From: Candidatus Latescibacterota bacterium
GTDB lineage: Bacteria > Latescibacterota > UBA2968 > GCA-2709665
Direction: 5' to 3'
Length of the DNA: 64,000 nt
NCBI GenBank assembly: GCA_965203805.1
Contig: OZ241917.1
Span: 1,600,001 to 1,664,000, forward strand
The notes under the pieces were generated by a model. That model did no database searches. It was given only the letters and a program-made list of their open reading frames with translations, and had not been told where the DNA came from. The position numbers and the translations under genes were made by a program. Shown here one piece after another: positions 47,542-64,000 of this stretch (positions are counted from its first letter, which is position 1; each line of letters starts with the position of its first letter).

Positions 47542-48332
47542 GTGCGCCGTGAAAAGGCGCGGATCTTCAGTGGGTGAAAGTCCCAACCCGACAAGGGTTG
47601 CTTCAGTCGGTAGCAATCGGAGCAGGGACGTAGGTAACGAAATCTCTGAAGCCTCCGGTGTAGAGGGTCGCAAGGCGACTCGGCGAGTATGCGGGCCGAA
47701 ACGTGAGTGAACGCTGAGCAGGCCTCGAAAAAGGTAATGCGGGAGCCGACCCGTCTGACGATCGGGGAAGGCCGCCGTCGCTGGAAAAAGACAGCAACGC
47801 GAGCATCCAGCGGTCCCGCCGGGGTAATGGCGGAGGCACGTATACAAGGAGATCCGACGCAACACCTGCCTGCGCCGAGTCCTGCTCGGCAGGCAGGCGG
47901 GAAGCCCCAGCGGTGGTGCAGGGACACCAACCGGACGCCCGTGAGGGACAGGCCGGGCCGCATGGGGTGGCGGACAGGCTCGTAGTACCCGTGAAGCCGG
48001 GTAACGCCGGTGGAGGGAAGGGGCCTGACTTCGGATGCGCTTGTGAAGGGGACAACGGTCGGGAGAGTGGCGCAAGCCTATAACCTCCTCCAAAAGTAGA
48101 CGAGGCGACTCCAGAACAAGCTTGGGTTTCAGGTGAAGCTGTCCGGGCAGCGCGGTCAGCGTGTGCCTGAAGGCGACGTCCGTCGGAGAGCCGGATGCGG
48201 GAAAACCGCACGTCCGGTTCGACGAGCGGGATGTGGAAACGGGGCACGGAGGGGCTATTGAGGCACCGCCAGACGAAAGGGGCGGAAACGGATAGGCCAC
48301 TCCTAAACTACCGCGCCACATCCCGACTCTAC
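47542..48332 (+). mobile_element. ORF-less group II intron (IIB-type domain V)
   Basis: 5' GTGCG; DV GAGCCGGATGCGGGAAAACCGCACGTCCGGTTC (48188-48220); ends CCCGACTCTAC; EBS1 TGACGA (47756-61) complements exon TCGTCA (47536-41). Confidence 0.92.
47865..47897. repeat. short palindromic insertion CCTGCCTGC..GCAGGCAGG
   Basis: Splits the usual intron segment AACA|CGGGAAGCCC; same ends at 63562-63580. Confidence 0.75.
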
Positions 48333-48580
48333 TTATTCCGGGACGTTAAATCGAATATACGCAAGTTGATAAAGGCGATTAAACATCTGATTTCCAGGAT
48401 GCTTCAGGTCACGGGACGTGGACGAAAAAAATGTGCTTCCGGACGACATTTTCGGCCCGGTGAGGAAATAACTGCAGGGTCACCGCGTTGCCACACACGC
48501 CGCTTTGCACGGATACATTTTGTGCCTTTTGTGCTTTCTGTGGCCGATTTTTCGGTTTTTTTCAAATTGAGGTTAAATCC

Positions 48581-49066
48581 CTATACACCGATCTCATCGT
48601 GTAGAATCTGATCAACGATGCAGCCAAGTTGCTGCACTTTCGCAAATTCGGCAGAGAGTTTCTCAATCAGGTCATCGTCGCCGAAGCGAACGTCTCGACT
48701 GAAGACCTTCATCGTACTGTTCGACACCTTGTATCCCTTCCATGTCTCAATCATACCGCGTGCTTCTTTCACAAAAGGCCGGCTGAAAGCAGCGCGCTTC
48801 AATCGAGTTCCCGGGAATGTGTCTTGATGAAGCACGTGCATGACAAGACGTGTCTTCTTCTGTTGCATTTCACGGTCAGTAATCCAGGTCTCGAAATGGA
48901 TACCCATTCCGTCTTGATTGAACCATAGGTCCCTGAACAGTTGAAGCCCTGATCCTCCACTTTTGGGAAACGTGTCGAGTCGCGTTTCCCACCCATCCGA
49001 AAACCAGTCTGCCGTACGCAAATTACCGTCCAGCCTCTCCATCAAGGACGAATAGTCACTCTCCAT
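48581..49066 (-). CDS. hypothetical protein
   Basis: 161-aa ORF overlapping the upstream gene; WFNQDGMGIHFETW. Confidence 0.7.
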   Translation of the reverse strand: MESDYSSLMERLDGNLRTADWFSDGWETRLDTFPKSGGSGLQLFRDLWFNQDGMGIHFETWITDREMQQKKTRLVMHVLHQDTFPGTRLKRAAFSRPFVKEARGMIETWKGYKVSNSTMKVFSRDVRFGDDDLIEKLSAEFAKVQQLGCIVDQILHDEIGV

Positions 49067-50174
49067 CGGCCTCTCCTCTGCTTTCTGAGGGGTGATCCAT
49101 CACTGCAGGCAAGACATGCCTCGTTAGGATGCGGAAGACCTGGTTGGCGACTGCGGATCCGTAATTTCCACCTGTGAAGACAATCACCATCTCAACATCG
49201 GGAATCACGAACAGGAACTGACCGCCATTTCCTTCGGCAACGAAGGTCTTGACAGGACGTCCGGCAACACTGAAGCGATCCAGCCACCAGCCAAACCCAT
49301 ATCGTTCGTTTCCAAACTGAGGGTTGACTGAATCTTCGATCCATTCCGCAGGCAGTACCTCAACTCCGTTCCACACCCCACGGTCCAGGTACAGTTGACC
49401 GATCTTGGCCAAATCACGGGGTCTGAGACGAAGTCCTGCATGTGTTTGCGGCAATCCTGTCTTTGTCCGCCACCAATCGCTCTGACGGATGCCCAGAGGT
49501 CCAAAGAGATATTCGTTGGCGAAAGCATCTGTGTGCAGGCCGGAAACCCTCTTGATAACCCCCGCAAGGAGAATTGCACATCCGCTATTGTAGTTGAATC
49601 GTGTTCCGGGTTCGTCAGACATGTCAGCTGACAGCACATATCCGATGAAGTCGTAACTGTTCTCCATCTGAGCTTCCGAGTTTGGAGAGCCAGGCTCAGA
49701 TTTATGCGCTCCCGATTGGTCCCACCTGAACCCGGAAGTCATCGTCAGCAGATGTCTCAAAGTGATCTGTTTTTTCTCTTCGGTTATGTGCGCGGAGTAA
49801 TCCGGGAAGAATTGATGCATTGGCACATCAACAGAATCGATAAAGCCCTTGTCAATGGCTATTCCAACGAGCGCGGACGTTACACTCTTTGAAACAGAGC
49901 GTGTGTCATGTAGCCGGTCCTTGTCGAATACGACCTGCCCCCTCCACCCATCGGTGCCCGCAAAGTACTCCTCCAGTACGAGAATGCCTCGCCGAGCAAT
50001 CAGAAAGCTGTGGAGATTCTTGTACTCCCCATCCCGGATCCTGGCCAGACACTCCGCTATCGCATCCGCATCCAGACCTTGCCCGGCCAGAGTACCAGTC
50101 CTCCAACCATCGGATGCATCAGCATGACCTGTGCTGCACAGCGTGAGGAACATTGACAAGAACAGTCGTATCAC
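49056..50174 (-). CDS. serine hydrolase, beta-lactamase-related (class C-like)
   Basis: SVSK, LRHLLTMTSG, FNYNS, AEGNGGQ; AGGAGG RBS before GTG. Confidence 0.9.
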   Translation of the reverse strand: MIRLFLSMFLTLCSTGHADASDGWRTGTLAGQGLDADAIAECLARIRDGEYKNLHSFLIARRGILVLEEYFAGTDGWRGQVVFDKDRLHDTRSVSKSVTSALVGIAIDKGFIDSVDVPMHQFFPDYSAHITEEKKQITLRHLLTMTSGFRWDQSGAHKSEPGSPNSEAQMENSYDFIGYVLSADMSDEPGTRFNYNSGCAILLAGVIKRVSGLHTDAFANEYLFGPLGIRQSDWWRTKTGLPQTHAGLRLRPRDLAKIGQLYLDRGVWNGVEVLPAEWIEDSVNPQFGNERYGFGWWLDRFSVAGRPVKTFVAEGNGGQFLFVIPDVEMVIVFTGGNYGSAVANQVFRILTRHVLPAVMDHPSESRGEADGE

Positions 50175-50221
50175 CGATCTGCCTCCTGTCCTTTCATGAC
50201 TGCGGGTTGCGACCGCCTGGC

Positions 50222-50272
50222 CACTAACGTTGAGCATTGCAGAAGCGGCCGCGCAACAGTCTAATGTATGAG
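50222..50272 (-). repeat. partial attC-like site
   Basis: CACTAACGTTGAGCATTGC..TGTATGAG, like 15336. Confidence 0.55.
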
Positions 50273-50477
50273 GGTAAGCTGAGCAACTTCGAGCGAAGCT
50301 CAGTAGGTCTGGAGGGAGCGGATGCTGGACGATTCAAAGTAAACATGCCATTACAAACGCAGACCATCCCTACGCTACTGATCAACGCGGGCTTTGAATC
50401 CGTCGAATGGACCCATGGAGAGGCCTGGGTTGTGACGGGAAAGAAGCCATAGCATATCCTCCCGGAACTACATTGAT

Positions 50478-51429
50478 CTAACCCGGAAACTCAGTCCTCA
50501 ACAGCGGTTGAACACGATACTTCCATTGGCTCTCAATCAAGGAATGGTCTGGTGATTTTGCGGCTGCTTCCAGGATATTCGTAGCTGCCCGACTGGCCAA
50601 GAGGGCAGGTATGTACTCTTCCAAATCCATGCTGAGTGAACGAACTTCACGATACCCCTTCAATAACGCATCAGACCTCTCCTGGAAACCAGGACGACCG
50701 TAAGGGCCGGCGAGGACCACAGCGACGTCATACAAGTAGTAGCCGAATCCGCAGTCGCCGAAATCAATCGCGATGGCGTGACCCGGTCGAAAGAGGACAT
50801 TTCCGAAACTGAGGTCTGCGTGAATGAGGCCGAACATCTCTGTGTCGCAGCCCATCTGTTGTTCCGCTTCTGTCAGCCGACCATAGACCGTTTCCAGATC
50901 GCGTCGAACAGGAGCCGGTCCGATCTCATCTAAAGGAAACTTCGAACGGGAACCAAAAAGACCCTCAGCGTCATACGTGGGGCGATCAAAACCCGTGGGT
51001 GGCGACCACGCTTCAGAGTGATTGTGCAACTCACCCGCAACGCGGCCAAGCAATTCGAAGTGCCGAGGCGATCGATGGTCCTGATCCAGGATACGTCCGT
51101 TGAGCCAGGAAGTGACGGATACCGGAAATGGTCCGGGTACGCCTGGAACATCTGCCACGATAACTCTTTTGCCGTCAGGCGATCTATAGGGCTGTGGAAC
51201 GGAGAGCGTGGCAGAGAGCCTCCAGCCAATCCAATTCCGATTCAATGATCCGGGGCGCCTTCCTGTCACGGTGAATCCGCACTCGATACTCGCCTGAATC
51301 GCAGGTCCACTTCGACTTGCGACAACGGCATTTTCCCAAACCCAGTTCGCGGAGCGCGGCCTCTGCCACCTTGCGTAACCGACGGATTCGCCCCTGGTGA
51401 GTTAGCTCGTCGAAGCTCCGTTTGGCCAT
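50478..51429 (-). pseudogene. phosphotransferase (homoserine kinase type II-like), frameshifted near 51210
   Basis: N-part ..RVRIHR..IESELDWLEAL in one frame, C-part VPQP..IHADLSFGN..IDFGDCG in another. Confidence 0.8.
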
Positions 51430-51495
51430 TCCGACCTCCACAAAAGCACCGTCACCATCGGTGGAGTACCGCCTCTCTCTTGTGCCGCAGGACCC

Positions 51496-51550
51496 AGTGT
51501 TCTGTCCCGGAAATAAGTCGCCTGAATTCGACCGTCGAGTCGCCCGGCTC
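51496..51550. mobile_element. truncated end of the 34630 MITE family, fused to an attC half
   Basis: Reverse complement of 34741-34796 with a few substitutions. Confidence 0.8.
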
Positions 51551-51554
51551 TATG

Positions 51555-51635
51555 GGCGGGTTGCCGTCAGGCCAAGGAGCCCTTCGACAAGCTCAGGATA
51601 AACTCCGCGACGCAGTGCGAGTGGACGTGTTAAAT
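51555..51635 (-). repeat. right half of attC-like site with REP-like insert
   Basis: Nearly identical to 38142-38222; ends GTGGACGTGTTAAAT. Confidence 0.85.
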
Positions 51636-51678
51636 GCTGGCAGCGGCCCTCTCTTCGCGAAGCACTATTGGGGCGGAG

Positions 51679-51846
51679 TTAACAGCCCGTTGGAAAAGTC
51701 CATCCGGGCTACGTCCGGCCCTTGTGGCCGAAATACGGCGTTGCGCTCCCTCCCCGAATCCAGGGATTCGCGTCGGTCGCGCGCCTTGTCTTCGGCCACA
51801 ATGACTCGGCCTCGCCTGCAGAGCGACTTTTTCAACGGACTGTTAA
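51679..51846. mobile_element. MITE (~165 bp) with IS5/IS1182-like ends
   Basis: TTAACAGCCCGTTGGAAAAGTC ... GACTTTTTCAACGGACTGTTAA. Confidence 0.85.
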
Positions 51847-51896
51847 TGCGCACACCAGAACCCCGGTTTGTGTCATGTGAATCCTATGTCGGCCTC

Positions 51897-52889
51897 TTAG
51901 CGTTCGTCAGGACGTTGTGGAGAGCATCCTTCCTCTGTCGCTGCCTGAATGCAACCGAGATTATCGTAGACCCACCAGGCGCATTCGAATGTCTCCTCAG
52001 CGTCGTCCCGCGGACCATACTCTTGGAAGTGATCGACCAGCGTTAACAAGAAGAACGGAATTCCCAATGAAAAGGCCGTTTCCTCTTCTGACCTGATTTC
52101 GGTGGCGCTGCCGTAGCCTTCAAGAAGGCGAGGAAGGTGGCGGAGCCATGGACGTGTTCGCCCGGTGCTGCAGTCCCGAGCAACCAGGTTGGCCGCGAAA
52201 TTCGCAAGATCGCAGATGCGTGGCCCGACACTGATATGGTCACAGTCAACAAAACCGCTAACTTGACCGTTATGGAGTAGCGTATTGCCTAAGTGGCAAT
52301 CCCAAAGCACGGGCTGCTGGACAAGTCGAGGCGAAACGTCAGCGATTGGGTCTTCCAGACCCGAAAGAATGACTTCAAGTCGTTCACGGCTCCTGCCGGT
52401 CATCCGCTCACGCATCCGCGGGACTTTAACCTCAAACAGCCGCGAATAGAGTTCGGTCTCCCAAGTATCAATCTGGCCATCATACATCGCAAGGACCTGA
52501 TGCAGGTTGGCGTAAGCTCGGCCAACGTTGTAGTAGATCGGCCCCGCGTCATCAGCGTACAGGTCCGTACTTTCGCGCTCTATGCGAGGCAAAAGGATGA
52601 ATGCATTTGATCCGTCGGATGCATGAAATCCACCACTCCGAGTTGTAAGCAGGTAAGCGACCCGAACACCGGAGCGATGCAGATACTGGGTCACACGGTG
52701 CTGTAACCCAAGCGGTGAGAATGTGTCGTCCAGGCCACCAACGTCCTTTAGAACGTAGCGTTCGCCAGTGCTTGCAGTGACATGGTGAATGTGGGGAAAT
52801 TGTGGATCGGTTTCTATGGTTTCGGCGTTGACAGGCCAGTCTTCCAGCAGATCACGAATCCTGGCGGTTGGTTTTTCCCGGGTTGTCAT
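51897..52889 (-). CDS. phosphotransferase (APH/homoserine kinase II fold)
   Basis: YVLK, LWDCHLGN, FVDCD. Confidence 0.8.
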   Translation of the reverse strand: MTTREKPTARIRDLLEDWPVNAETIETDPQFPHIHHVTASTGERYVLKDVGGLDDTFSPLGLQHRVTQYLHRSGVRVAYLLTTRSGGFHASDGSNAFILLPRIERESTDLYADDAGPIYYNVGRAYANLHQVLAMYDGQIDTWETELYSRLFEVKVPRMRERMTGRSRERLEVILSGLEDPIADVSPRLVQQPVLWDCHLGNTLLHNGQVSGFVDCDHISVGPRICDLANFAANLVARDCSTGRTRPWLRHLPRLLEGYGSATEIRSEEETAFSLGIPFFLLTLVDHFQEYGPRDDAEETFECAWWVYDNLGCIQAATEEGCSPQRPDER

Positions 52890-52974
52890 GGCTATAGACT
52901 TCGCGAAGCTCGCGACGAAGTTGTGTATTCTGGTTTCGTGCGCGACTGGGTTGGGCGGGGGCCCCGCTGCTTGC

Positions 52975-53030
52975 ATTTAACGTGCTTGATGTGCGAAGCC
53001 GCCGCAGGCGGTTTGGGCGAACGAACCCAG
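52975..53030 (-). repeat. left half of attC-like site
   Basis: ATTTAACGTG..GCGAAGCCGCCGCAGGCGGTTTGGGCGA. Confidence 0.6.
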
Positions 53031-53209
53031 CATTTGCCGCGGCCGATCTTCGGTTGCTCGGCAAGGCAACAATCCGGCGCGATCAGCGCGATTATGGCCA
53101 ATGCCAGAAGAGAAATTCGTTGGGTTGACGGAACTCTCATGTTCGGGACTTCCATTTGTTTTTTGTGAATTCGTCCAACCGGAAGCAGTTCCACACCATC
53201 ATCGATGAC

Positions 53210-54715
53210 CTACTTATCACCCTCGATTTCTAAGTCGCCGTTTTTTGTGATACGACCGACAGCGAACCTGAAGCTGAAAAGGTCCGCGTGTTTGAATTGG
53301 AACTTTAGGCGCGCGGACTTTCCGGCGTAATCCCCGGGAGTGAGTCCGGACTGCCACGTGACCGGGTGGTCGATTTCGTCACCCCTCAGTGGCTTGCAGT
53401 CGTTCAGCGTCAGGCCCTTCAGGGGCCGGCCGTTTGCATCCTGGATTTCGACCCGGATTTCCCCGGCAGGTCGGGGCCAGGCGATGTAGTTGAGCTCCAG
53501 TCGGCTGCCGTTGAGCACAAACGGTTTTGTCACGATCGTTCCGCCGTCCGGACCGGATCGGACGGAAACGAATCCGTCGACACGGAACGTAAAACGCCTG
53601 AGCCGCGTCCTCGGCACGAATGACTTCTTCTTCCACTCGGGGTCCTCATATCCGTACCCTTCGGTGGCGTAGACGAAGTACTCGCGCTCATTGCCACGAA
53701 CCAGACCGTGGGCCATGAAGTTGGCCCGGTTGCCATCGCGTTGCTGGGGCGCACTGCCGGGAATCAATGGTTCGCGGCGTCGCAGGAACGAGTGCCCGCC
53801 GTCGCGGCTGGTCATCAGGATGGGATGGACCTGGGCGACGGCAAACCGGTCCGTGTATTCGGTGGGAAAGGCGATCAGAATGTGTGGCGCGCGTTCATAT
53901 GGAAGGACGCCGTTGGTGTACATCTCCCGGTCGACCTTGTCCGAATACGTCAGCGGAACGGGTTCCGTCCAGTTCACAAAATCGTCCGACACGGCCATGT
54001 GCACATTGCGCAAATAACCTTTTAGCAGATCCCGCACGAATGCGACGTAGCGGCCGAGAACCGGATCCCGGAACGCCAGGTTCTGCGAATCGAATCGCCC
54101 CTTCGTAATCGCGGGCTTTTCGGTCATCAACGTCCAGTGAAGTCCGTCCGGCGACTTGAAGGGATACATGCCGTAATCGGTGTATTTTCCCGGAATCTGG
54201 TGCGCGCCGCGAGCCCCGCGGACCAGTGCCTTGTACCGAGCGTCGGGTCTTACAGTTGGGCTGGTGTCGATGAACGGGACCATGTCGCCGCGCCATCCCA
54301 GGCCAGTGTGGGTTCCCAGTTTGCCTTGCCATTTGGCGGTGGGAAGGTACTTTCTGCCATCCCCACCGAGGACGATGTTGTTGTCCGAGGATCCTCTGAA
54401 TTTGAATAGACCAAGGTTTGGCTTCGTCCACCGGATGCCGTCGCGGCTTTCCGCGTAACACATCGGTTCGCCGCGCGCGTCTTCGCCGCTGCCGTGATGA
54501 TAGCCGCGGTAGTACATGCGAAACAGATCTCCGTCCTTGAGTACCGAGACGTAGCCCAAAGAAGTGTCTTCCCAGGGCTTGTCGTTCATCAGCACGACCT
54601 CTTTGCCCAACGGCTCGTGCAGATGTTGCGCCGCGTCGCCCTCGAAGCGTTCCACAATCCAGTCATCAACGAACAATTCGCGCCGCAGCGGCGATGATGG
54701 ATTGATGTCTGTCAT
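53210..54715 (-). CDS. glycoside hydrolase-like beta-propeller protein (distant homolog of 22376)
   Basis: ELFVDD, YAESRDGIRWTKP, SPDGLHW, FDSQN, RVDGF. Confidence 0.78.
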   Translation of the reverse strand: MTDINPSSPLRRELFVDDWIVERFEGDAAQHLHEPLGKEVVLMNDKPWEDTSLGYVSVLKDGDLFRMYYRGYHHGSGEDARGEPMCYAESRDGIRWTKPNLGLFKFRGSSDNNIVLGGDGRKYLPTAKWQGKLGTHTGLGWRGDMVPFIDTSPTVRPDARYKALVRGARGAHQIPGKYTDYGMYPFKSPDGLHWTLMTEKPAITKGRFDSQNLAFRDPVLGRYVAFVRDLLKGYLRNVHMAVSDDFVNWTEPVPLTYSDKVDREMYTNGVLPYERAPHILIAFPTEYTDRFAVAQVHPILMTSRDGGHSFLRRREPLIPGSAPQQRDGNRANFMAHGLVRGNEREYFVYATEGYGYEDPEWKKKSFVPRTRLRRFTFRVDGFVSVRSGPDGGTIVTKPFVLNGSRLELNYIAWPRPAGEIRVEIQDANGRPLKGLTLNDCKPLRGDEIDHPVTWQSGLTPGDYAGKSARLKFQFKHADLFSFRFAVGRITKNGDLEIEGDK

Positions 54716-54811
54716 CGGTTTACACCTCGGGTGAAATGCCGGATCGACGTGTATCAGCGATTCTGTGCTTTTGGCGGCCAGGAATGGCCGCTGTGTCTTT
54801 GTGCCGCTTGC

Positions 54812-54878
54812 GCAAAACGTTCTCGCCGTGTGCGAACGAAGGTACGGATGCGCCGAGCCGCGCACGGTCGTGTTACAC
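54812..54878 (-). repeat. short attC-like site
   Basis: GCAAAACGTTCTCGCCGTGTGCGAAC..CGCACGGTCGTGTTACAC; NUDIX stop codon in the core. Confidence 0.8.
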
Positions 54879-55379
54879 GCTGCCGTGACTGGGTGGACGT
54901 GACCAGTCGTCCATAGCCGGAAGCTCGTCAATCTGGTCGGTATTCAGACGTTCGTTGAGTTCCCAGAGTGCGACTCGGTTGCTTTCCCATGTGAGCAGCC
55001 TCGTGGCTTCCCTGAAAGACAACCAGCTCACCTTGTCATGTTCATGGGACAAATCAAGTTCTTGACCGCTTACATCAACCGCAAATGAGTATTCAGGCAC
55101 GACAAAGATGTCCTTGGACCAGTGTTCAATTGGTGAGAATGCCGTCTTGGGGACGGATGCTCGGGAATCCAGCCGAAAGAAACGTGCCCCCTTTGGAATG
55201 CCCGCCTCCTCTTCTGCCTCGCGCCGTGCGGTTTGCTCTGCCGTCTCATCGTCTTCGGCACCACCTGCAATGAACTGCCACATAGAGTCATCCGCCCGAT
55301 GAAAGACGGCAAACTGGTATCCGACACTCCCACTCTCCCTGAACGGTATCACGATCACTTGTAGTGGTTGCCTTGCCAT
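54873..55379 (-). CDS. NUDIX hydrolase (NudB-like)
   Basis: WQFIAGGAEDDETAEQTARREAEEEAG; LSHEH; WESN. Confidence 0.92.
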   Translation of the reverse strand: MARQPLQVIVIPFRESGSVGYQFAVFHRADDSMWQFIAGGAEDDETAEQTARREAEEEAGIPKGARFFRLDSRASVPKTAFSPIEHWSKDIFVVPEYSFAVDVSGQELDLSHEHDKVSWLSFREATRLLTWESNRVALWELNERLNTDQIDELPAMDDWSRPPSHGSV

Positions 55380-55452
55380 GCTAACTATTCTCTCGGGTTG
55401 AGTCGCTCATACTCGTCCATCACAGCAGAAATATAGCCCCGCCACGGTTTTC

Positions 55453-55543
55453 GTGTAAAGTCTCACGGTTTGCGAACCCGCGAAGCGGCTTGCCGTCGGC
55501 CAAGGCGCCACCGGCCCCGCAGCGCAACACCGATGTGTTATGC
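55453..55543 (-). repeat. attC-like site
   Basis: GTGTAAA..CGGTTTGCGAACC..CCGCAGCGCAACACCGATGTGTTATGC. Confidence 0.85.
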
Positions 55544-55545
55544 GC

Positions 55546-55646
55546 CACTAACGGTTCCTGGCTTTACGACGTGGGCCGGTCCCAAAGGCCCATGTGCCCG
55601 CAGGGCCGAGGGGCGGATGCCCCGAAGCGTAAAGCCGGTGTCAGCC
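55546..55646 (-). repeat. second, tandem attC-like site
   Basis: CACTAAC..GGCTTTACG..CGTAAAGCC..GTCAGCC. Confidence 0.7.
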
Positions 55647-55725
55647 GTGTTTATTAATTCGTATCCGTTCATTGTCGGGGCCTTATGTATCAAAATGTAG
55701 CCGCTAACTCATTCAGGCAGACTTC

Positions 55726-56646
55726 TCATTCACCAAAAAACGGGTGCGGCTCGCCGGCTTCCACCAGCCTTTGTACCAGACTCGAGTACTTCAACACCTC
55801 CGTCAGCCGGGCGCGCCAATGCGGGGCGTAGAAGCCGACGAATTCCTGGAAGAACGCTCGCGCATCCTCACTGACGCCATCGAAGTATTGCGGCAGCAAA
55901 AACCATGGCTGGTCACTGGCGTAGTTCAGCCCCCGCCGGCGCATCGTGAACTCTGCTGCGGCCCGTTTTTTTACCGAGATCATCAACGAGCGCCTGAGCT
56001 TGTCGGTGTGATAGCGGCCCCGATGAATGCACAACTGGGTAAACAGCACCGCGTCACCGGGTTCCTGGTGGAGACGAACGGCGCCAGGCATATTGTTCGA
56101 ACGGTTGTGGATCCCATCATCGGCGACGCAGATCGCGTGCTCTTCGGGGGAGTAGTCACGCAGGTGAGACCCCGGTACCACTTCGAGATCGTCGGTAGGG
56201 ACCAATGCGATTTGCATCTGCAACCCGGCTCCGGTCTCCGGTCTCCGGGATACGTCTGCTTCTGCTCCGATCTTGTCCTTGTGCCAAAATCCGTCCTGGC
56301 TTTCTCCGGTCGGATTAAAGTAGAGACTGCTCAAGGCGAAGAGAAATTCTTCATCCAGGGCCGCGCTCAGCGATTCGACAACCTGGGGCGACCCCATGGC
56401 ATTGAGCAGAAAGGCGAGATCGTCGGGGTGATCGCGGTGATATTCCGGGTCGTTCAGGTGCCTCATGTAATTGGCCTGGGGCCCCACCGGTGGATTGTCA
56501 CAGCGAGGAGCGCGCCGCCACTGTTCCAGCACTCGCTCACAGATATCGCGCAGCCGTTTTGTCGTCGCTGCGTCGAACAAACCGCGCACCACGGCGTAAG
56601 AGTGTTGGCGTAGCCGCCCAGGGCTGGGTTCAGTAGCAATACTCAT
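55726..56646 (-). CDS. phytanoyl-CoA dioxygenase family protein
   Basis: WHKD, VVPGSH, PGDAVLF..IHRG. Confidence 0.88.
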   Translation of the reverse strand: MSIATEPSPGRLRQHSYAVVRGLFDAATTKRLRDICERVLEQWRRAPRCDNPPVGPQANYMRHLNDPEYHRDHPDDLAFLLNAMGSPQVVESLSAALDEEFLFALSSLYFNPTGESQDGFWHKDKIGAEADVSRRPETGAGLQMQIALVPTDDLEVVPGSHLRDYSPEEHAICVADDGIHNRSNNMPGAVRLHQEPGDAVLFTQLCIHRGRYHTDKLRRSLMISVKKRAAAEFTMRRRGLNYASDQPWFLLPQYFDGVSEDARAFFQEFVGFYAPHWRARLTEVLKYSSLVQRLVEAGEPHPFFGE

Positions 56647-56789
56647 TATATCCTCTTGGGTTGCTGTGGGAAGACTATCGACTTCCCCTCTACTCCGGGA
56701 TTCGACCTCTGTGGCTCTGTGGTGAGGCCTTACGATCCCGCTTCCGGGAAGGACGTTGGGATAACAGCCTGGCAAGGTCGATGATTCAA

Positions 56790-59048
56790 TCAGAACTCAG
56801 CGGCAATCATCGCGTACTGTCCAATGTTCGTTAATATGGTTTCCAGGTGGTTTCCGTCGAACGTGACCTCCAGGTCATCTCCCGTGCAAACGTCCCACAC
56901 GCGACGAGGAGCGCCCCGCTCCGTGAGCTGCCAGCGCAGGTTCACTTCGGGTATCGTGGTCACATAGTCAAACTGTGGGCTGAAGCGCGGCCAGATCCCC
57001 GGCAGATGCTCGACGCGCTCGCCGGTGTGATTGATCAGAAACAACACTTGGCTTCCCGGTTTTTCATTCGGAATCATCACGAGTTGGTTCGGGCCATCGG
57101 TCATCAGAGGCCGGCCCTCCGGGTAGAGCCAATCCACCACGGCGCCCAGAAGATCGCGGACCACCAGCAGGCGATATTCGAAATGAAGCTCCTCCACCGG
57201 CGCGGCCACATAGACGACGCGGCCCTTGCCAACCGTCCGGCAGGTGAGGGCGGGACACAGAGCGTCGTCCTCGCGCCCACCGAAGACGATGTTCGCCACC
57301 ACGTCGGTTCCCGGCCGGGCCTGGACGAACTCGAACCGATTGAGCGGCCACAGCTCATGCGAGCACCCCTCGGCCAGCCATTGACCCGGAACGCAGCGAC
57401 CGTACGTGTCGAACGTCCCCGCGGCCCAGAGGTGTTGTTCGTAATCTGCGAATTGGTCGGGGTTCGGGTCCACGCGGTCCACGCCCAGAAGGTCCGCCAA
57501 GGCGAAGTTGTCGCGCATCTCATCGGGCTCGGCGCCGTACAGGCTCGTCCGGTACGTCGCCAGGAGCCGCCCGCCCGCCTTCACATATTCCGTGATGCCT
57601 TCGACTTCCTCCCGCGTGAGATGGCCGACGTTGGGCAGAAACAGAACGGGATACTTTGCCAACGCCGCTGCATCGGAGAGAACCCGCTCCTCGATCACCG
57701 ATGTCGGCAAATGGTTGGCCAGCATGGCCGAGAAGGCCCCGCGACGGCAGGATTGCTGCGGGGGCGTGCGCACGAGATAGCCCGCCTCGGAGAGCGGGGC
57801 CTCGAGTTCCCCCGGGCGGTCGGCGAGGTCCTGCCTGGACTGGCCGATGACATCGCGCGGACGATCGCGCATCACCAGGGGCTCGGCGCGGAACCGCAAC
57901 CGCTCGAGCATCTCATACACCCGCACCGGCAAAACAAACGGAATAGCAACAAACGGTGACGGGTGGAGATCTTCGAAGAGTGATTCGTTCCTCTCCAGGA
58001 TCTCAAGGAGCGCCGCCAGCTCACGATTGGCTTTATGGGGAGGCGACAGCCAAAGGTTCACGCCGCACGCCACCAGGACGCCCCCTCCGGAAGCAAAGCT
58101 GGCTGCCGCCTCCTCGACGAGTTCCATGCCGAAGCACTGCGCCCGCGACCAGCCCGTCAAGGCGCCGACGTATTGCCACATGGCCCATCCCGACGACTCG
58201 GCCAGACTGGCCGCCTCGAGCCGATGAAGGAAGTCGCCCCCGGCCTCGTAGAGGAATCCATCGTGCACTTCCACGATCCTGCGTTCGGGCCAGTCGCCCA
58301 CACCCAGGCCGTGCGTCAGCACCGGGATGTCCTTCTTCTTTCGCGTCGCGGCGGCGAATTCGAGAAAGACATCGCCGACGATCCTGCCGTACTGCAGGCT
58401 CCACGCTTCCAGCATCTCCCGGTCTTCCCGAGGCAGGCTGTGCGGATCGGGTGCATACGGCATTGGGCAGCCGAATTGCCTCTCGAACTTCTCGAGGCAA
58501 TAGTCGCAGTAGCACAAGGGCGACTGCGGGGTGTGGTGCGAATGGTAAGGACAGGCGGAATCGGTGTAGATCGCGTCGACGTCGTGGTCCACCACTTGTG
58601 CGATGAAAGCGCAGATGGCCTCTCGGTACGGTGTGTTGAAGCAGACGTGCCGGTGAAATCCGCCGCCGTGGTGCCTCAGGACAGGAGCGTCGCCTTCGGG
58701 GCTGGGGCGGTACATCCACTCCGGATGATGGATCAGCATGTTGTCTTCGGGAATAATGTGCCCCACGGGAATGTACCCGATGACGCGGACGTCCCGCGCA
58801 TGGGCCTCGGCGATGGTCTCGGCGAGCAGGTCGCGCTCACCTAATTGAGGGTGCGGGGGAAAGAACTCATTGGGGAAGACCGCCCATTTGCCCGCGCTGC
58901 CGAACCAAATGGCGTTGGCGTGGTATTCCCGCACGACATCGACGAGCTGCTTCGCGTCAAAATCGATATCGGGCCAGAAGGGCGGGTGGTATTGCTCTAT
59001 CTGAAAGGTGCGCGCCCGCCGTACCCACTCGTGACTCGGCTTGATCAT
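56790..59048 (-). CDS. putative glycoside hydrolase with beta-galactosidase trimerisation-like domain
   Basis: DLLAETIAEAHARDVRVIGY, CFNTPYR, CYCDYC, EYVKAGGRL, VGKGRVVY. Confidence 0.8.
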   Translation of the reverse strand: MIKPSHEWVRRARTFQIEQYHPPFWPDIDFDAKQLVDVVREYHANAIWFGSAGKWAVFPNEFFPPHPQLGERDLLAETIAEAHARDVRVIGYIPVGHIIPEDNMLIHHPEWMYRPSPEGDAPVLRHHGGGFHRHVCFNTPYREAICAFIAQVVDHDVDAIYTDSACPYHSHHTPQSPLCYCDYCLEKFERQFGCPMPYAPDPHSLPREDREMLEAWSLQYGRIVGDVFLEFAAATRKKKDIPVLTHGLGVGDWPERRIVEVHDGFLYEAGGDFLHRLEAASLAESSGWAMWQYVGALTGWSRAQCFGMELVEEAAASFASGGGVLVACGVNLWLSPPHKANRELAALLEILERNESLFEDLHPSPFVAIPFVLPVRVYEMLERLRFRAEPLVMRDRPRDVIGQSRQDLADRPGELEAPLSEAGYLVRTPPQQSCRRGAFSAMLANHLPTSVIEERVLSDAAALAKYPVLFLPNVGHLTREEVEGITEYVKAGGRLLATYRTSLYGAEPDEMRDNFALADLLGVDRVDPNPDQFADYEQHLWAAGTFDTYGRCVPGQWLAEGCSHELWPLNRFEFVQARPGTDVVANIVFGGREDDALCPALTCRTVGKGRVVYVAAPVEELHFEYRLLVVRDLLGAVVDWLYPEGRPLMTDGPNQLVMIPNEKPGSQVLFLINHTGERVEHLPGIWPRFSPQFDYVTTIPEVNLRWQLTERGAPRRVWDVCTGDDLEVTFDGNHLETILTNIGQYAMIAAEF

Positions 59049-59410
59049 AGCGATGACCTCCAAAATCCGTACCGTCTCTTTTTTCCCGCAGAGCCCGCGG
59101 AGAACGCAGAGAACGGCCTCCCTTGATTCACGGCCGCTCATCATGATCGAGAAGCCGAGAACTATCAGGCTGAACCCAGCCAGCAGCAGGCCAAGCTCGG
59201 CTGTCGCCGTCAACTCAGGATCGTCCCAAGCAACAAGAGCAAAGTCAGAGAATGGACGATAAACGCTCTGGTTGCGAGAGCGCGCACGTTTAACCCGAGG
59301 ACCTCAACGACCCTCCCCGCTGTCATGAGGATGGAAGCAGTAGCGCAGGTAACGCCGCAACCAGAGCGGCACGGAGGTCATTCGCAGTCATTGGTTTCGA
59401 CTGGCATGGC

Positions 59411-59507
59411 TGCTAACGTTCCGCCGGTTTGCGAACCCCGACCTTGTCGAGGGGTTGCCGCAGGCCAAGCCGCCAGAGGCGGCGTAGCGCAAGTGGACGT
59501 GTTAGGT
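59411..59507 (-). repeat. attC-like site
   Basis: TGCTAACGTTCCGCCGGTTTGCGAACC..GGTTGCCG..GCGCAAGTGGACGTGTTAGGT. Confidence 0.9.
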
Positions 59508-59562
59508 GGCTGTGCCAGCCGGGGGTGGGGGGCATTGCCACGGACGGCAATGCCGCTGTCTT

Positions 59563-59736
59563 TCAGGTTGAATCTACAGGTTCAACTCGCTTAGGGGGAA
59601 GGGAAGTGAACTGCCTTCCACTCGCTTTTTCTTGCTCTTTTAGATCCTCATATATAGCCTGTAGATCATAGTTAAATTTCTTCGCATGTGCTTCGCGGAT
59701 CCTCCTGACTTCGTCTACAATCGGATCTTTCCACAT
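59563..59736 (-). CDS. small putative antitoxin
   Basis: MWKDPIVDEVRRIRE..FNYDL, typical partner downstream of this PIN family. Confidence 0.75.
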   Translation of the reverse strand: MWKDPIVDEVRRIREAHAKKFNYDLQAIYEDLKEQEKASGRQFTSLPPKRVEPVDST

Positions 59737-59740
59737 ATCA

Positions 59741-60214
59741 TTATTCCTCCAACAATTCTTCAGGTGTACAGATGACCGTTGGTTCATACCCGTTGGCCCG
59801 ACAGATCTGCTCGATTTTGCTCCGCATGGCGGCATTAGCCATATGACTGCAATTCCACGTCAGCAGATAATCCATGCCGTTGATTACAGCCACTGCGATA
59901 TGGATCGCATCTTCGGTAGCGTGCTGAGGAAGAGGACCTTTCTCTACCAGCTCTTTGGCAAGAGATAGGGCCTCTTCGGTTACTCCCAGCAATTCAACTG
60001 TTTCCAATGCTGCCAATCGTCTCCGACTCATCTCTTGGTCTCCTGCCTTCGCCTCATCCCAAACAAGCTGAGAAGCGAAAAGATCAAAGTCCTCCTTCCG
60101 CGTACTCCACCACTCATCCGTAATTTGTTGGTGTGCAGCAACGATCAGATCGCGACTCGGACGAGATGTCAGATAACTTATGAACGTCGTTTCAATATAG
60201 GCTTTGGGCTTCAT
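59741..60214 (-). CDS. PIN-domain (VapC-like) toxin
   Basis: YIETTFISYL, DAIHIAVA, LLTWNCSH. Confidence 0.9.
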   Translation of the reverse strand: MKPKAYIETTFISYLTSRPSRDLIVAAHQQITDEWWSTRKEDFDLFASQLVWDEAKAGDQEMSRRRLAALETVELLGVTEEALSLAKELVEKGPLPQHATEDAIHIAVAVINGMDYLLTWNCSHMANAAMRSKIEQICRANGYEPTVICTPEELLEE

Positions 60215-60326
60215 TTTGTATCCTCTGTCAACCGGCCTGTTGGACTCTGCATCGGGCCACCCCTATAATTCGCTTTTGCGTCGCCTTCATGTAACGGTCG
60301 GCGCACTCGCCAATTTCCTATCAGTT

Positions 60327-61301
60327 TCATTCCTCCCACGGCAGGAAACAGACTTTGACGGCCTGAAGGTTCTCCAACAGGTTGACGCCTTCAGCGTAGC
60401 GTTCGAGCGGCAGCTTGTGCGTGACGAGCGCGGCCAAGTCGAGCTTGCCGCGGCGGATGAGGTCGAGCGCATACTCGGCCGATTCGCGCGAGTGGCCCTT
60501 GTACCCGCACAGCCGCAGCCCGCGGTAATGCTGCGGGCTGAACGTGTAGTCTTCGCGCTGCACGCCGAACAGGGCCAGGGCGTCCTGAGTCCGGTCCATG
60601 AGGAACTCCACCGACGCCTTGGCGCCGACGCAGTCCACGGCCGACTCGAGTTTTGGCCATTCCGGCCGCGCCGGGAATTTCCCCGACAAGTCGGCCCGCG
60701 GGTCGTAGCAACCGGCCGCGCCGAGACGCTCGGCCATGGCGCGGCGGTCGGATACGAAGTCGAACCCGTACACTTCCCTGGCGCCCTCGGCTCTGGCCAT
60801 CTGCAGCGCCACCAGCCCGGCCCCGCCCAGGCCGCAGACGCCGAAACAACGGCCCAGGATTGCGTCCATATCGCGCAGCATCCGGAAGCAGGCGCCTACG
60901 CACATAGCAAGCTCGAGCGGCGCCAGCGCCTCGTCGGGCAATTCTCCGGGGACGCGTATTACTCTTGCCGCGTCAATCGCGACGTATTGCGCATAGCAAC
61001 CCTGATGCCCCTCGCCGGTATCGCGCCAGGCGCACACGCGGTCGCCTGCCTTCAAACCAGCCACACCTTCGCCAACAGCCTCGATGCGGCCTACGGCTTC
61101 GTGGCCGGGCTTGCCCGGCGTGAAGGGGTAGTGGAATGCGTGGCCGACAAACATCGGTTCGTTGTGACGCATGTGCAGGTCCCACTGCGGGCAAGTCGTG
61201 ACCGCCGTGATACGCATCAGCACCTCGTCCGGACCGGGCTCGGGAACGGGGACGTCGAGAATCTCGAACTCGCGCGGCGATGTGACCTGCAGGATCTTCA
61301 T
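60327..61301 (-). CDS. zinc-binding alcohol dehydrogenase family protein
   Basis: TTCPQWD, PGHEAVG, GLGGAG. Confidence 0.9.
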   Translation of the reverse strand: MKILQVTSPREFEILDVPVPEPGPDEVLMRITAVTTCPQWDLHMRHNEPMFVGHAFHYPFTPGKPGHEAVGRIEAVGEGVAGLKAGDRVCAWRDTGEGHQGCYAQYVAIDAARVIRVPGELPDEALAPLELAMCVGACFRMLRDMDAILGRCFGVCGLGGAGLVALQMARAEGAREVYGFDFVSDRRAMAERLGAAGCYDPRADLSGKFPARPEWPKLESAVDCVGAKASVEFLMDRTQDALALFGVQREDYTFSPQHYRGLRLCGYKGHSRESAEYALDLIRRGKLDLAALVTHKLPLERYAEGVNLLENLQAVKVCFLPWEE

Positions 61302-61353
61302 TGTCCGCGCTCCCTGCATGCCCGTGAAGTAGCAGAAGGCTTCATCATTCCGC

Positions 61354-62301
61354 CTATCTTACGTGGCGCTGAATTCGTCCGAAGCGTTCGCGCAGCTTCT
61401 CCACCCGCGGTGTATCGAGGTACGGCGGGTCAACCACCATCAGGTTCTCGCGAAACCGTTCCGGCCTGCGCGTCCCGACACAGCAAGTACTCACGTCCTG
61501 TGCGAGCACGAAGCGCAGCGCCGCCGCGGGCACACTGTAGGGCTTCAGGAAATCAAACAGGTCCGGATCGGTGTACGGCGGCTGGGACGGAAGATAGCCG
61601 GCCGCGACATGCCGCCGCACGCACTCAAGCGCCGCCGGCACACTGACCAGACCGGACTCCTGGTTCGCCTGGTTCAGCGGCATCATCACCGCCGTGCCGA
61701 CATCGTGCCGCGCACACAGCGGCAGCACCGATTCCACCGCGTTTTGCAGTAGAAAATTGATCGTGAGCATGATCACGTCCAGGGCGCCGGTAGGAACCGC
61801 GCGCTTCAGGATCTCGTGTGCTCCGTCAACCGTGGAGAGCTCGCTGATACCGATGAAACGGACCTTGCCCTGCTCACGCAGCCTGGCCATGGCCTCGTAA
61901 CAGCCATCGTTCATAAAACGGTCCAGAGAGTCGAGCGTGCGTATGCCGTGGCCGAGAAGAATATCAAGACGATCACGGCGCAAGCGGCGCAGGCTCTCCT
62001 CGGCTGAGGAGGTCAATGCCGCCGCTGAACCCGTGTATGCCGCATCGCCGCCCCAACCATCGTAAGGCTGATACTTGGTCTCTACTATGATATGGTCGTG
62101 GCCCCGCAACGCTTCGCCCAGTGCGCTCTCGCTGTCACCGTTGCCGTAGTCCGCGGCGGTGTCGACGAAGTTGACGCCGCTCTCGATTGCTGCGTGTACG
62201 GTGGCAATGAACTTCGCCCGGTCCTGCGACGCGCCCCGTGCTGCACCGTAACTGAGTTCCGAGACCTGCAGTTCTGTTCTTCCCAGGCGCCGATACCGCA
62301 T
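61354..62301 (-). CDS. aldo/keto reductase
   Basis: MRYRRLGRT, FVDTAADYG..SE, SLRRL. Confidence 0.92.
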   Translation of the reverse strand: MRYRRLGRTELQVSELSYGAARGASQDRAKFIATVHAAIESGVNFVDTAADYGNGDSESALGEALRGHDHIIVETKYQPYDGWGGDAAYTGSAAALTSSAEESLRRLRRDRLDILLGHGIRTLDSLDRFMNDGCYEAMARLREQGKVRFIGISELSTVDGAHEILKRAVPTGALDVIMLTINFLLQNAVESVLPLCARHDVGTAVMMPLNQANQESGLVSVPAALECVRRHVAAGYLPSQPPYTDPDLFDFLKPYSVPAAALRFVLAQDVSTCCVGTRRPERFRENLMVVDPPYLDTPRVEKLRERFGRIQRHVR

Positions 62302-62339
62302 GATCAGTTCCTCTGTTCCGCCGTCACTGCTGCTGAGCT

Positions 62340-62831
62340 CCCTCCGGGACAAGACACTAGCTGCGGTTTGACCAAATGCTGCCGCGCCCCTCTCTCCAGG
62401 AACGCCGGTTTCATCATCCTAACCGCTATACGCCGGTCCATCGACGCTTGCCGGGCCGAGTAGACAACCCCCCATCCCGCATTCGCCAAGTGCATCCAGC
62501 AGCTCGTAGTCGGCTTCGCCCCGGTCGTCCCCCGAGGGTCTGATGAATGACCGGGAGCAATGTACGGCCCCCGACTGCCGCGCACTTTCTGGGACGGCAT
62601 CTTGATGGTCGTCCCGGTGAGGATCGTCGGTGGAACAAGAGATGACCAGAGACTGTCTACTCGGTCTCGGATCGAGCTGGCGTCTACCACGCCGGACATC
62701 GGTACGTCGGGCAGTGTGTCCTCCCTGTCTGAACGGTCGTCAGTGGGCACCTCACTTCGTCCTGACAAGCCTGTCACTGGTGCTTCGTCCCGCGTCCCGC
62801 GAACTTTCTCCTGTTTAGTTTCTTCGCACAA
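62340..62831 (-). pseudogene. 5' relic of a Ser/Thr protein kinase
   Basis: DYELLDALGECGM(fs)GVVYSARQASMDRRIAVR: kinase subdomains I-II, frameshifted and truncated. Confidence 0.65.
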
Positions 62832-63000
62832 CTATTGCCTATACGGAAAAATCGCGGGATATCTCAGTCGTGGTCGCAGAAACTCCACACATCGAATTCG
62901 CAATGTGAAATATCCAACACGTAACAGAATTAAGAAAAAGTGTACGAAATTTGCCTGGCGGCCAGGACGGCCGCCGGTTTTGTCTTGGGCGCGTGCTTTC

Positions 63001-63087
63001 CGTTAACGTCTTAGCGCTTGCGACAGGCGCGTAGCGCCTGTGGGTTGGGTAGTGGTGAGGGGTGAGTTCGCAAGCGCGTTGTTACCT
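63001..63087 (-). repeat. attC-like site
   Basis: CGTTAACGT..GCGCTTGCGA..TCGCAAGCGC..GTTACCT. Confidence 0.8.
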
Positions 63088-63136
63088 GCTGTTGGACCCC
63101 AAGGCGGAGGCAGGAAGCCGACGCCGCGCTTGTCAG

Positions 63137-63343
63137 CTATTCAGACCCACCCTGAGATCTGGCATAATCTCTCTCAACAGCTTCGCCGATCGACCAGAAT
63201 CTGTTTGTCTTTATTTCGTCGATGGCCTTCATATACAGGAGCGGATTACAAACTGGATCACGACACGTTACGCCCACCGGTTTTCCATCCGCATCGGCCC
63301 AACCCTTTACGGCGACGATCTGAGCTTTCTTTACTTCGACTAG
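63137..63343 (-). pseudogene. 3' fragment of a cassette gene interrupted by IS630
   Basis: Open minus frame LVEVKKAQIVAV..NPLLY..FWSIG..* starting at the IS end. Confidence 0.5.
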
Positions 63344-64000
63344 TACCCAATGACGGCTAAAGAGCCTCGTGGTCTGGATACAGTTTTTTCAGTTTGATGC
63401 GAGCATCGTTGGTCGTGAACCGCCAATTGACAGCCTTGCTTTTGTTGTTGCGGTCGTTTGTCCAGGCGGAGACCTGCTCTTTGAGGGATTCGATATCGGG
63501 GATGCGTTCCTTCAAGCATTGGTTGCTCAAGACGCTCATTTCGATCTCGGCAATGTTGAGCCCTGCCTGCGGCAGGCAGGCGGGCGTGTGCGTGTTGAGG
63601 TTATCACACACCAACACGACGGTTTCAGCTTTTGGGTAGTCCGTATTCAGGAGATCCTTGATCTCCTGGGCCCAGTCCACTGCGGTCTTGCGTTGTCTTA
63701 CACACACCTTGCGCCAGCCCGAAAGCGGTTCGGTGAACATGAAGTTCACGGCGGTTCCGTTCCGTTCATACTCGTAGTCGTAGCGTTCAGGTTGGCCCCG
63801 ACGTGTTGTGAGGGGAACACGCGTCTCCTTGACCAACTGCACCGGGTGTTCGTCCATATTGACCACGGGCCTCAAGGCGTCGTAGGGCCGCTGATAGACG
63901 TCCAAAATATCCTCCATCGCGGCGACAAACGCGGCGTTCTGCTTGGGCGGAATCACCCAGCACCTTCTCAGGTGAGGCTTAAGTTGGTTTTTTTAGCGTC
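63341..64000 (-). mobile_element. IS630-family element (partial; internally deleted transposase at 63357-63956)
   Basis: MDE..QL, DYEYERNGT, DNLNTH, LNIAEIE, WRFTT.DAR.KL; CTAG at end; A7 run before NQLKPH. Confidence 0.92.
63562..63580. repeat. palindrome CCTGCCTGCGGCAGGCAGG at the transposase deletion point
   Basis: Encodes CLPQAG in place of the usual ~30 residues before LNxAE. Confidence 0.75.

Follow-up and report, generated by a model that had tools for sequence, protein, structure and literature searches.

Two short palindromes of 33 and 19 bp, found in a 64,000-nucleotide stretch of a Candidatus Latescibacterota chromosome (the window), very probably belong to a family of ultra-small, non-autonomous mobile hairpins that insert cleanly into other DNA. 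The window comprises positions 1600001-1664000 of the single contig (G000:C1:1600001-1664000) of its genome, here called G000 (5,865,457 bp, 59% GC). The 33-mer lies in a group II intron and the 19-mer in an IS630-family transposase gene, where it is probably the remnant of a deletion between two such insertions. Leaving the enzyme aside, a mobile hairpin family with clean insertions together with this deletion is considered a likely account of the data. The elements are discrete insertions with fixed ends, which occur mostly at G|C junctions and show no target-site duplication. They have landed in repeats, in insertion sequence (IS) transposase genes, in the group II intron, in an occasional ordinary gene and in each other, and their copy number varies widely between relatives. 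An earlier reading of the letters of the window (the sequence-only reading) had reported both palindromes, at 47865-47897 and 63562-63580, each followed by CGGG. It had proposed either an ultra-minimal mobile element, too small to encode its own mobility and moved in trans, or a scar left by repair or by a defence against mobile genetic elements (MGEs). The two palindromes and the CGGG directly 3′ of each were confirmed, and the first of the two proposals agrees with the precise insertions without target duplication described below.

Filled and empty sites of the hairpin family

The 33-mer is built from an outer stem of 7 bp, a bulge of 2 nt, an inner stem of 6 bp and a loop of 5 nt, and reaches -13.8 kcal/mol (z -4.0) when folded as single-stranded DNA. 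The 19-mer folds into an 8-bp stem with -8.0 kcal/mol (z -3.1). The 9-mer arm is found seven times on both strands of the window, compared to 0.58 expected occurrences, and this number was reached in 0 of 100 shuffles. Those at 17664, 37130 and 41628 have no partner arm.

The family was collected from G000 using a pattern of the two ends CCTG[CT]CTG and CAG[GA]CAGG, which were parsed like brackets. The genome-wide count, which the sequence-only reading had suggested as a check, amounts to 268 elements, of which 231 are simple and the remainder compound, with one element nested inside another. The element lengths include 19 (n = 12), 20 (3), 21 (9), 27 (16), 30 (27), 31 (49), 33 (78), 36 (14) and 37 bp (10). 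With a modal length of 33 bp for the simple elements, these are high-copy imperfect palindromes of the size of repetitive extragenic palindromes (REPs, 20-40 bp). Exact copies of CCTGCCTGC number 279 on one strand and 270 on the other, and 189 pairs of CCTGCCTGC and GCAGGCAGG lie at most 80 bp apart, the spacer length peaking sharply at 15 nt (65 cases). According to fold prediction, the hairpin is closed at its termini in 161 of the 231 simple elements. The foot of the stem, 5′-CCTG[C/T]CTG(C)...(G)CAG[G/A]CAGG-3′, is conserved, and the interior is variable and mostly self-complementary. The hairpin is thus not a fixed sequence, as had been supposed at first, since there are many subfamilies of 19-37 bp and only the ends are common to all of them. 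Single units and nested compounds predominate in the end-pair spacing.

Empty alleles, another check suggested earlier, were sought for the 230 outermost elements by searching the genome with their left and right flanks (40 nt each) joined. An exact empty paralogous site, with contiguous flanks and with boundaries at CCTG...CAGG, was found for 102 of them.

For the intron carrying the 33-mer, Rfam matches were obtained to RF02003 (47568-47706, 97.8 bits) and RF00029 (48186-48332, 45.8 bits). Three copies in G000 contain the 33-mer (the window copy and those at genome positions 1340xxx and 689xxx), and three others are empty exactly there and read gcaaca|cggg (134676, 5624622 and 5585699), which bears out the proposed insertion without target duplication. 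The intron homologs of the relatives G001, G008, G011 and G013 are empty at this site as well. Public sequencing runs were compared in the form of assembled Logan contigs, and in contigs of the runs X15, X1 and X18, which come from three studies, the intron was found with exactly 47865-47897 skipped, in what may be paralogous copies. Furthermore, one contig of run X1 omits 47526-48584, i.e., the intron and the repeat next to it, and has 11 different letters instead, which represents an intron-less allele of another population.

A second site in the intron, empty in the window copy, carries the 27-bp element CCTGCCTGTCCGAGGGACGCAGGCAGG in the other five copies of G000 and is empty in the homologs of the relatives too. 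Precise excision of the 27-mer from the window copy was favoured initially. It is no longer preferred, because the tree of the copies, taken with the empty sites of the relatives, fits both histories equally, two gains being as parsimonious as a gain and a precise loss.

Two further empty target sites of the window lie in a copy of a dispersed host repeat. The first, at 51743, is filled with 33-bp or compound hairpins elsewhere in the genome and has 20 empty paralogs, and a contig of run X2 carries a 31-nt hairpin-like insert there. The second, at 51779, is filled elsewhere by a 30-bp subfamily and has 25-26 empty paralogs. The features of the window are collected in Table 1.

Table 1. Palindromes, their host elements and empty target sites in the window (positions in the window; a dot stands for no strand).
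Feature	Position	Strand	Sequence, context or basis
33-bp hairpin element	47865..47897	.	CCTGCCTGCGCCGAGTCCTGCTCGGCAGGCAGG, in intron at gcaaca|cggg
19-bp perfect palindrome	63562..63580	.	CCTGCCTGCGGCAGGCAGG, linking gttgagc| and |cgggcg in IS630 transposase gene
ORF-less group II intron (ORF, open reading frame), host of the 33-mer	47542..48335	+	Rfam models and copy alignment; 3′ end approximate
IS630-family transposase gene, host of the 19-mer	63357..64000	-	translation and paralogs; continues past window end
Empty site ggtcccg|ccgggg in intron	47818..47819	.	27-bp family member in the other five in-genome copies
Empty target site acggcgttg|cgctccc	51743..51744	.	copy of dispersed host repeat
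Empty target site gcgtcggtcg|cgcgcc	51779..51780	.	same dispersed host repeat as 51743 site

Filled and empty alleles were also identified between species. A GH20-like gene (a weak Pfam match, below the cut-off) contains a 33-mer close to its start, where it adds 11 codons in frame. Its orthologs are filled in G000, G001 and G002, with copies that have diverged by substitutions, and empty in G008, G011 and G013, where they read ctgtG|Cgc. The filled and empty groups are split in the gene tree with a UFBoot value of 96, so one insertion event suffices. In addition, a multicopy IS with an ORF of 563 aa was matched at least 12 times in G001 and at least 11 times in G008. Judged by match length alone, the full-length matches, with one exception, fall short of the G000 stretch by 33-35 bp, which fits empty hairpin sites.

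At the 55 independent sites with an empty paralog, position -1 is a G in 46 and position +1 a C in 44 cases. The G|C junction itself is found at 38 of the 55, compared to a GC dinucleotide frequency of 8.5%. This rule replaces the formerly suspected target CGGG, which is present at 10 of 248 flank ends (background 0.76%). No tetranucleotide tag of the GTAG or CGTC type was found in the flank logos, in which only G at -1 and C at +1 are conserved. A 2-bp duplication of GC can be read at the G|C sites, because the element begins with C and ends with G. However, at the 17 sites with another junction no 2-bp duplication is readable, and three of them (A|T) do not show even a 1-bp overlap. The terminal C and G are therefore the element's own and there is no target duplication. 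In the site ...aatgtctg|ccccacc of a REP-like repeat, the 33-bp and the 37-bp subfamilies are found in different copies, thus one site was used repeatedly.

The deletion in the IS630 transposase gene

Around the 19-mer, the frame of the window copy reads ...NLNTHTPACLPQAGLNIAEIEMS... / NLNTHTPACLPQAGLNIAE. The sequence-only reading had noticed that transposase residues are missing at this point, and indeed a paralog retains 88 bp, encoding AALYKAFPPEEARRLARRLEIHYTPKHGSW, which the window copy lacks. In the deletion allele the 88 bp are gone and a single 19-mer stands between the outer flanks, leading to a net change of -69 bp that is in frame. This allele is carried by the window copy, by its twin at genome position 2176237 and by G001:C2, and the transposase gene of the window is disabled by the deletion. 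The twin contains an additional insertion of approximately 290 bp downstream of the palindrome (genome 2176317-2176607). A contig of run X1 shows a further 32-nt hairpin-like insert in the IS630 gene at window position 63513, 49 bp from the 19-mer. It ends with ...GCACGCAGACAGG, and its first base is readable as the target's own C.

Three other states of the gene were identified. First, the 88 bp are intact, from gttgagc to cgggcg and without a palindrome, in six copies of relatives (two in G008, three in G013 and G001:C4). Second, a hairpin at the right site alone, the 20-mer CCTGCCTGCCGGCAGGCAGG at gtgccg|cgggcg, is present in G000 at 4564458 and in G001:C16, where the 88 bp are kept and the frame is shifted. 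Third, a hairpin at the left site alone, a 19-mer at gttgagc|cagctt within the SW|LN codons, is found in a diverged IS630-like gene at genome position 4551729 (NF033545, 82.5 bits, below the cut-off of 100). All three G000 copies of the IS630 of the window are disabled by hairpins.

Since both ends of the deletion are proven insertion sites, the 19-mer is read as the survivor of two hairpins. One would have entered at gttgagc|cagctt and the other, 88 bp away, at gtgccg|cgggcg. The intervening DNA and one hairpin would then have been lost, either because the identical 9-bp arms recombined or slipped, or because an enzyme joined two element ends. We infer this loss step from the paralogous states. 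A parallel locus is found in an IS1380-family gene (genome 434584-434735), where a 33-mer is followed by 100 bp and a 19-mer. In its paralog at 1369844 the 33-mer alone is located between the same outer flanks.

The IS1380-family transposase frame of this locus (genome 433391-434824, L156:891-2324, minus strand) contains four hairpins of 21, 21, 33 and 19 bp. Its 478 codons are free of stops and align with the IS1380 model along the whole frame, so its three in-frame inserts are tolerated at the level of the reading frame.

Two observations weigh against the deletion between two insertions. No IS630 copy with both hairpins was found, so that the double-insertion intermediate is a postulated one, and the centre base differs between the states, being G in the deletion alleles of G000, A in that of G001 and CG in the right-site 20-mer. 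A single event would need no such intermediate: the left end of the right-site hairpin would attack gttgagc|cagctt intramolecularly and produce an adjacent deletion. This is suggested by the right-site-only copies in two species next to the missing double-insertion copy, and the left end point is a proven target. However, the product is a 19-mer with G or A in its centre and not the right-site 20-mer with CG, and the locus at 434584 does show a double insertion, which makes the single event an unlikely explanation. The loss of 88 bp between two separate insertion sites is accordingly retained as the better, and reasonably probable, explanation, also compared to the earlier suggestion that a hairpin is written by replacing DNA.

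Spread of the elements and search for a mover

Among 15 genomes of the genus the copies range from 0 to 168. Individual copy numbers are 168 in G001, 115 in G000, 112 in G015, 106 in G016, 71 in G011 and 30 in G007, down to 0. A match was obtained in 18 of 41 relatives, and the control with the reversed pattern gave 0 everywhere. In a scan of the phylum the 33-mer form was found in 18 of 168 genomes, again with 0 for the reversed control. High copy numbers are confined to the family to which the window belongs, with a match in 13 of 21 genomes, six of which have at least 13 copies.

A scan of 185,579 species with a loose pattern resulted in at least 119 stretches, of which roughly 60 are expected by chance (a rough estimate). 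Among the matches listed across phyla, most 33-mers have the asymmetric GC-bulge architecture of the family, and several interiors are identical or near-identical to G000 variants. These listed matches carry the labels of metagenome-assembled genomes from Latescibacterota, Verrucomicrobiota, Planctomycetota, Lentisphaerae, Acidobacteria and others, some of which may be mis-binned. Only those interiors that match G000 variants hint at a spread across phyla. Two records labelled Candidatus Latescibacterota (L053 and L094) share the host-repeat flanks of G000.

The exact 20-mer was also found in viral contigs, with 40 stretches in approximately 30 contigs and up to seven copies per record, whereas a rough estimate of the chance expectation is well under one. 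It is located inside tRNA genes (L252, L218 and L244), in the D-loop and just before the T-arm, with the tRNA continuous on both sides, and inside short tandem repeats (L219, L226 and L241). Its junctions are mostly purine|pyrimidine. Viral loci with the 33-mer form number 11.

The search of G000 for an enzyme that mobilises the hairpins gave no result. An autonomous gene-bearing element with the ends of the family was not found either. Five long-range end pairs with shared extended ends are 300-6000 bp apart, and since their inner ends are the ordinary interiors of small members, each pair was taken for two independent small elements, a reading based on the ends and not on the gene content of the DNA in between. 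There is no small free-standing GIY-YIG gene in G000, the two GIY-YIG matches being part of open frames of 629 and 678 aa. Matches to Y1_Tnp/HUH at E<=0.001 are two in number, and both are RAYT-like. An IS200-type TnpA was not found in G000, and the one RAYT-like match that was scanned against NCBIfam is below the IS200/IS605 cut-off. Five viral records carrying the 20-mer contain neither a GIY-YIG nor a Y1_Tnp domain, but these records may be fragments.

The first of the RAYT-like matches is a gene of 201 aa (genome 4533512-4534117, L001:2513-3118) assigned to NF047646 with 104.2 bits (cut-off 80). It is flanked by the GTAG-tagged hairpin GTAGGGCAGGGATGCCCTCG and as such forms a classical REPtron. 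A 33-mer is located 7 nt after its stop codon, inside the loop of the downstream GTAG-tagged REP copy. The GTAGGGCAGGGATGCCCTCG hairpins also build a repeat of 120-250 bp, present in dozens of copies, one of which adjoins the intron of the window (48334-48584). The second match is an in-frame domain (aa ~245-440) of a 1235-aa DUF1156 methylase-like protein (genome 4546977-4550684, L002:1978-5685). This fusion is full-length in G008, G011 (two copies) and G016, with 73-76% identity. Small hairpins flank the fused domain, and in G000 a 27-mer directly precedes it on the upstream side. In the fusion orthologs of G008, G011 and G016, no hairpin with exact ends was found in the gene or at the site of the 27-mer, and the only exact-end hairpins nearby are located between the two gene copies of G011. 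G006 and G002 have a RAYT of another type with GGCAGACAGGAATGTCTGCCCCACC at its flanks, a sequence which in G000 is a host repeat of the hairpins.

For the movement itself, a trans-acting enzyme may recognise the foot of the hairpin on folded single-stranded DNA, cut at its base and paste the element elsewhere. This would resemble the HUH/Y1 ‘peel-and-paste’ of IS200/IS605 elements and what has been proposed for REPs. An HUH-like single-strand mechanism is put forward here tentatively, as one possibility of rather low probability. Several results count against the explanation given here, beginning with the enzyme search in G000 described above. The empty targets show no extra structure (a mean of -8.28 compared to -8.28 kcal/mol for random G|C sites, p 0.48). 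No orientation bias by replichore was detected (37/30 vs 16/11, with a weak GC skew), hence there is no support for lagging-strand targeting. No de novo insertion event was observed in the assembled contigs. In the five orthologous RAYT loci (G011, G001, G013, G008 and G016), the 1.5-kb flanks contain no CCTGCCTGC-type end (one mismatch allowed) that is placed as an element beside the gene, and three of these loci show only lone one-mismatch 9-mers at a distance of 300-800 bp. Finally, the element-rich genomes G015 (112 copies) and G007 (30) are without the RAYT type of about 100 bits.

The last two results bear in particular on the explanation that the hairpins are ordinary REPs of a REPtron, moved by the RAYT of G000 or by the RAYT domain fused to DUF1156. 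Their size, the bulged imperfect palindrome and the mostly extragenic position are REP-like, and a RAYT above the NCBIfam cut-off is present, with one element close downstream of it and the 27-mer close upstream of the fused domain. In addition, 6 of 41 genomes possess the RAYT type of about 100 bits, and each of the six has at least 11 elements. However, a conserved tag (GTAG or CGTC) is missing, the flanks are variable beyond -1 and +1, and the flanks of the RAYT gene itself belong to a different, GTAG-tagged REP. The orthologous RAYT loci and the fusion orthologs of three genomes lack the hairpins at these sites, G015 manages its many elements without this RAYT type, and the five viral records have no Y1_Tnp domain. 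Copy numbers of the elements follow none of the RAYT types, and the only clear RAYT of G000 seems to serve a different REP. A RAYT was set aside as the mover, as flanking and phyletic pattern link it only weakly to the hairpins, and the REPtron explanation is regarded as improbable.

Even less credence is given to a movement via an RNA copy, in which the hairpin of a transcript would be reverse-transcribed and pasted in, a route that reportedly has been proposed for the small dispersed repeats of Nostoc. Group II introns are numerous in G000, the intron of the window having about six copies there and dozens in relatives, so reverse transcriptases are probably present in trans, and many elements are located in transcribed repeats and genes. 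Yet both orientations are equally common, and the fixed blunt ends at the foot of the hairpin would remain unexplained.

The elements are approximately 8-fold enriched in repeated or mobile DNA, an enrichment that the sequence-only reading had proposed to test: 102 of 230 are located there, whereas of 2000 positions drawn at random 105 are, and of 2000 random G|C junctions 121. In frames of at least 250 codons they are depleted (35% vs 84% of 2000 random positions). The host DNA comprises the IS630, two IS1380 lineages, an IS1182-like gene (81 bits, far below the cut-off), two unclassified multicopy ORFs, the intron and several REP-like families. This enrichment, together with the hairpin-disabled IS630 copies, would fit a dedicated repair or anti-MGE system writing a hairpin scar at breaks in selfish DNA. 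Enrichment in MGEs is, however, expected anyway from tolerance and hitch-hiking, and the same elements are located in intergenic mosaics of repeats between housekeeping genes, in frame in the housekeeping-type GH20-like gene of three species and inside each other, so that this second proposal of the sequence-only reading is very improbable. That the palindromes are no insertions at all, and instead native parts of the intron and the IS or assembly artefacts, has practically no probability left, since only their palindromic nature speaks for it, whereas intact homologs are without the motif, filled orthologs have diverged by substitutions, the flanks continue across the insertions even in viral tRNA genes, and contigs from independent studies show other hairpin-like inserts nearby as well as the intron form without the 33-mer.

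A hotspot at 3.25-3.5 Mb contains 56 of the 230 elements. An integron-like array was considered for this region and rejected, as the genes are ordinary ones (Pup ligase, proteasomal ATPase, H+-PPase and L25) and the intergenic repeats are mosaics. The Pup ligase and the proteasomal AAA ATPase are encoded at genome positions 3300881-3305355 (L212); Pup-proteasome systems are unusual outside Actinobacteria and Nitrospirae. Apart from the hairpins, a 37-nt repeat, GTTTCAATCCTTGTTCTGATGGAAGATTCTCTCTGAG, occurs about 65-70 times in G000 and looks like a large CRISPR array. In the window, 137 bp between two minus-strand ORFs (52940-53076) are missing from bridging contigs of the runs X1 and X2, an indel polymorphism without CCTGCCTGC ends.

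Relation to known repeats and meaning

No description of a CCTG[CT]CTG...CAG[GA]CAGG hairpin family was found in the literature searched by the 9-mer and by words, with supplements outside the search. By analogy, the closest described things appear to be the small dispersed repeats (SDRs) of Nostoc and the REPs. The hairpins work like both, but they lack what defines a REP, the tag and the flanking RAYT. They are not miniature inverted-repeat transposable elements either, as both a target duplication and an autonomous partner are missing.

Elhai et al. (2008, Genome Res 18:1484) reported SDR1-8 from Nostoc punctiforme and further Nostocaceae. These repeats reportedly occur inside short tandem repeats, as the viral 20-mer does here. 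Both groups consist of hairpin-forming repeats of approximately 20-30 nt without coding capacity, which insert precisely into other repeats and into their own copies. SDR families share their structure and not their sequence. The hairpins of G000 show the same traits, with members that lie inside one another or inside other repeats and with empty sites that are clean. In contrast to the SDRs, they are hosted by a Candidatus Latescibacterota genome and not by a cyanobacterium, have conserved (CCTG)2C ends and prefer G|C as target instead of HIP1, which has only 286 occurrences in G000. Outside Nostocaceae no SDR has been found, according to PMC5861425.

REPs, including those in BIMEs and REPINs, are known together with RAYT (TnpA-REP) transposases (PMC3116915, PMC8266576, PMC3733652). 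As in this study, they are high-copy, imperfect and often bulged palindromes of 20-40 bp, which are mostly extragenic, sometimes located in ORFs or in other palindromes, and for which a single-strand HUH enzyme is suspected. One end of a REP bears an unpaired tag, GTAG or CGTC, that is conserved (PMC3733652), whereas the hairpins of G000 have no such tag, are not consistently flanked by a RAYT and are found inside IS genes and an intron. They also seem to form nested singlets instead of inverted doublets, although no search was aimed at doublets of fixed spacing. Moreover, a separate classical GTAG-tagged REP stands beside the RAYT of G000.

IS200/IS605 elements insert 3′ of a fixed target of 4-5 nt and have two different sub-terminal hairpins. 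The elements of G000, by contrast, are one hairpin with a preference for G|C only, in a genome without an IS200-type TnpA. The absence of target duplication, the seamless boundaries and the recognition of a hairpin are common to them and to the IS200/IS605 family with its palindrome-associated miniature derivatives (PMC3116915, PMC6006769). In this respect the two systems are alike.

Hairpin elements are also known from organelles, such as the GC clusters of yeast, and from Rickettsia, whose palindromic elements (RPEs) have a length of about 100-150 bp. Repetitive hairpin-forming elements are also present in sponge mitochondria (PMC2800124), and RPEs have been described in Rickettsia (PMC3733652). 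All of these are small GC-rich hairpins which invade intergenic DNA and, in frame, genes. They differ from the present family in that the hosts are unrelated, most of them are longer and the ends are not shared.

It is conceivable, though doubtful, that the (CCTG)2C hairpins are among the smallest mobile DNAs, with the same 19-33-nt sequences in many phyla and in phages, and that they are moved by a widespread trans-acting activity other than RAYT, IS200-type transposase or GIY-YIG, which deletes DNA between copies and thereby erodes transposons, introns and tRNA genes. The elements disable transposases, promote small deletions and add peptide inserts, and in this way shape selfish and host genes. 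If a hairpin of 19-33 bp is indeed precisely cut and pasted, this would set a lower size limit for mobile DNA and point to an enzyme recognising a 9-bp stem, which would be relevant to genome evolution and possibly as a tool for scar-free insertion. With more than 100 pairs of filled and empty sites and a complete chromosome, G000 is a good place to seek the mover, which might be a new activity and, if so, would represent a new way of moving DNA.

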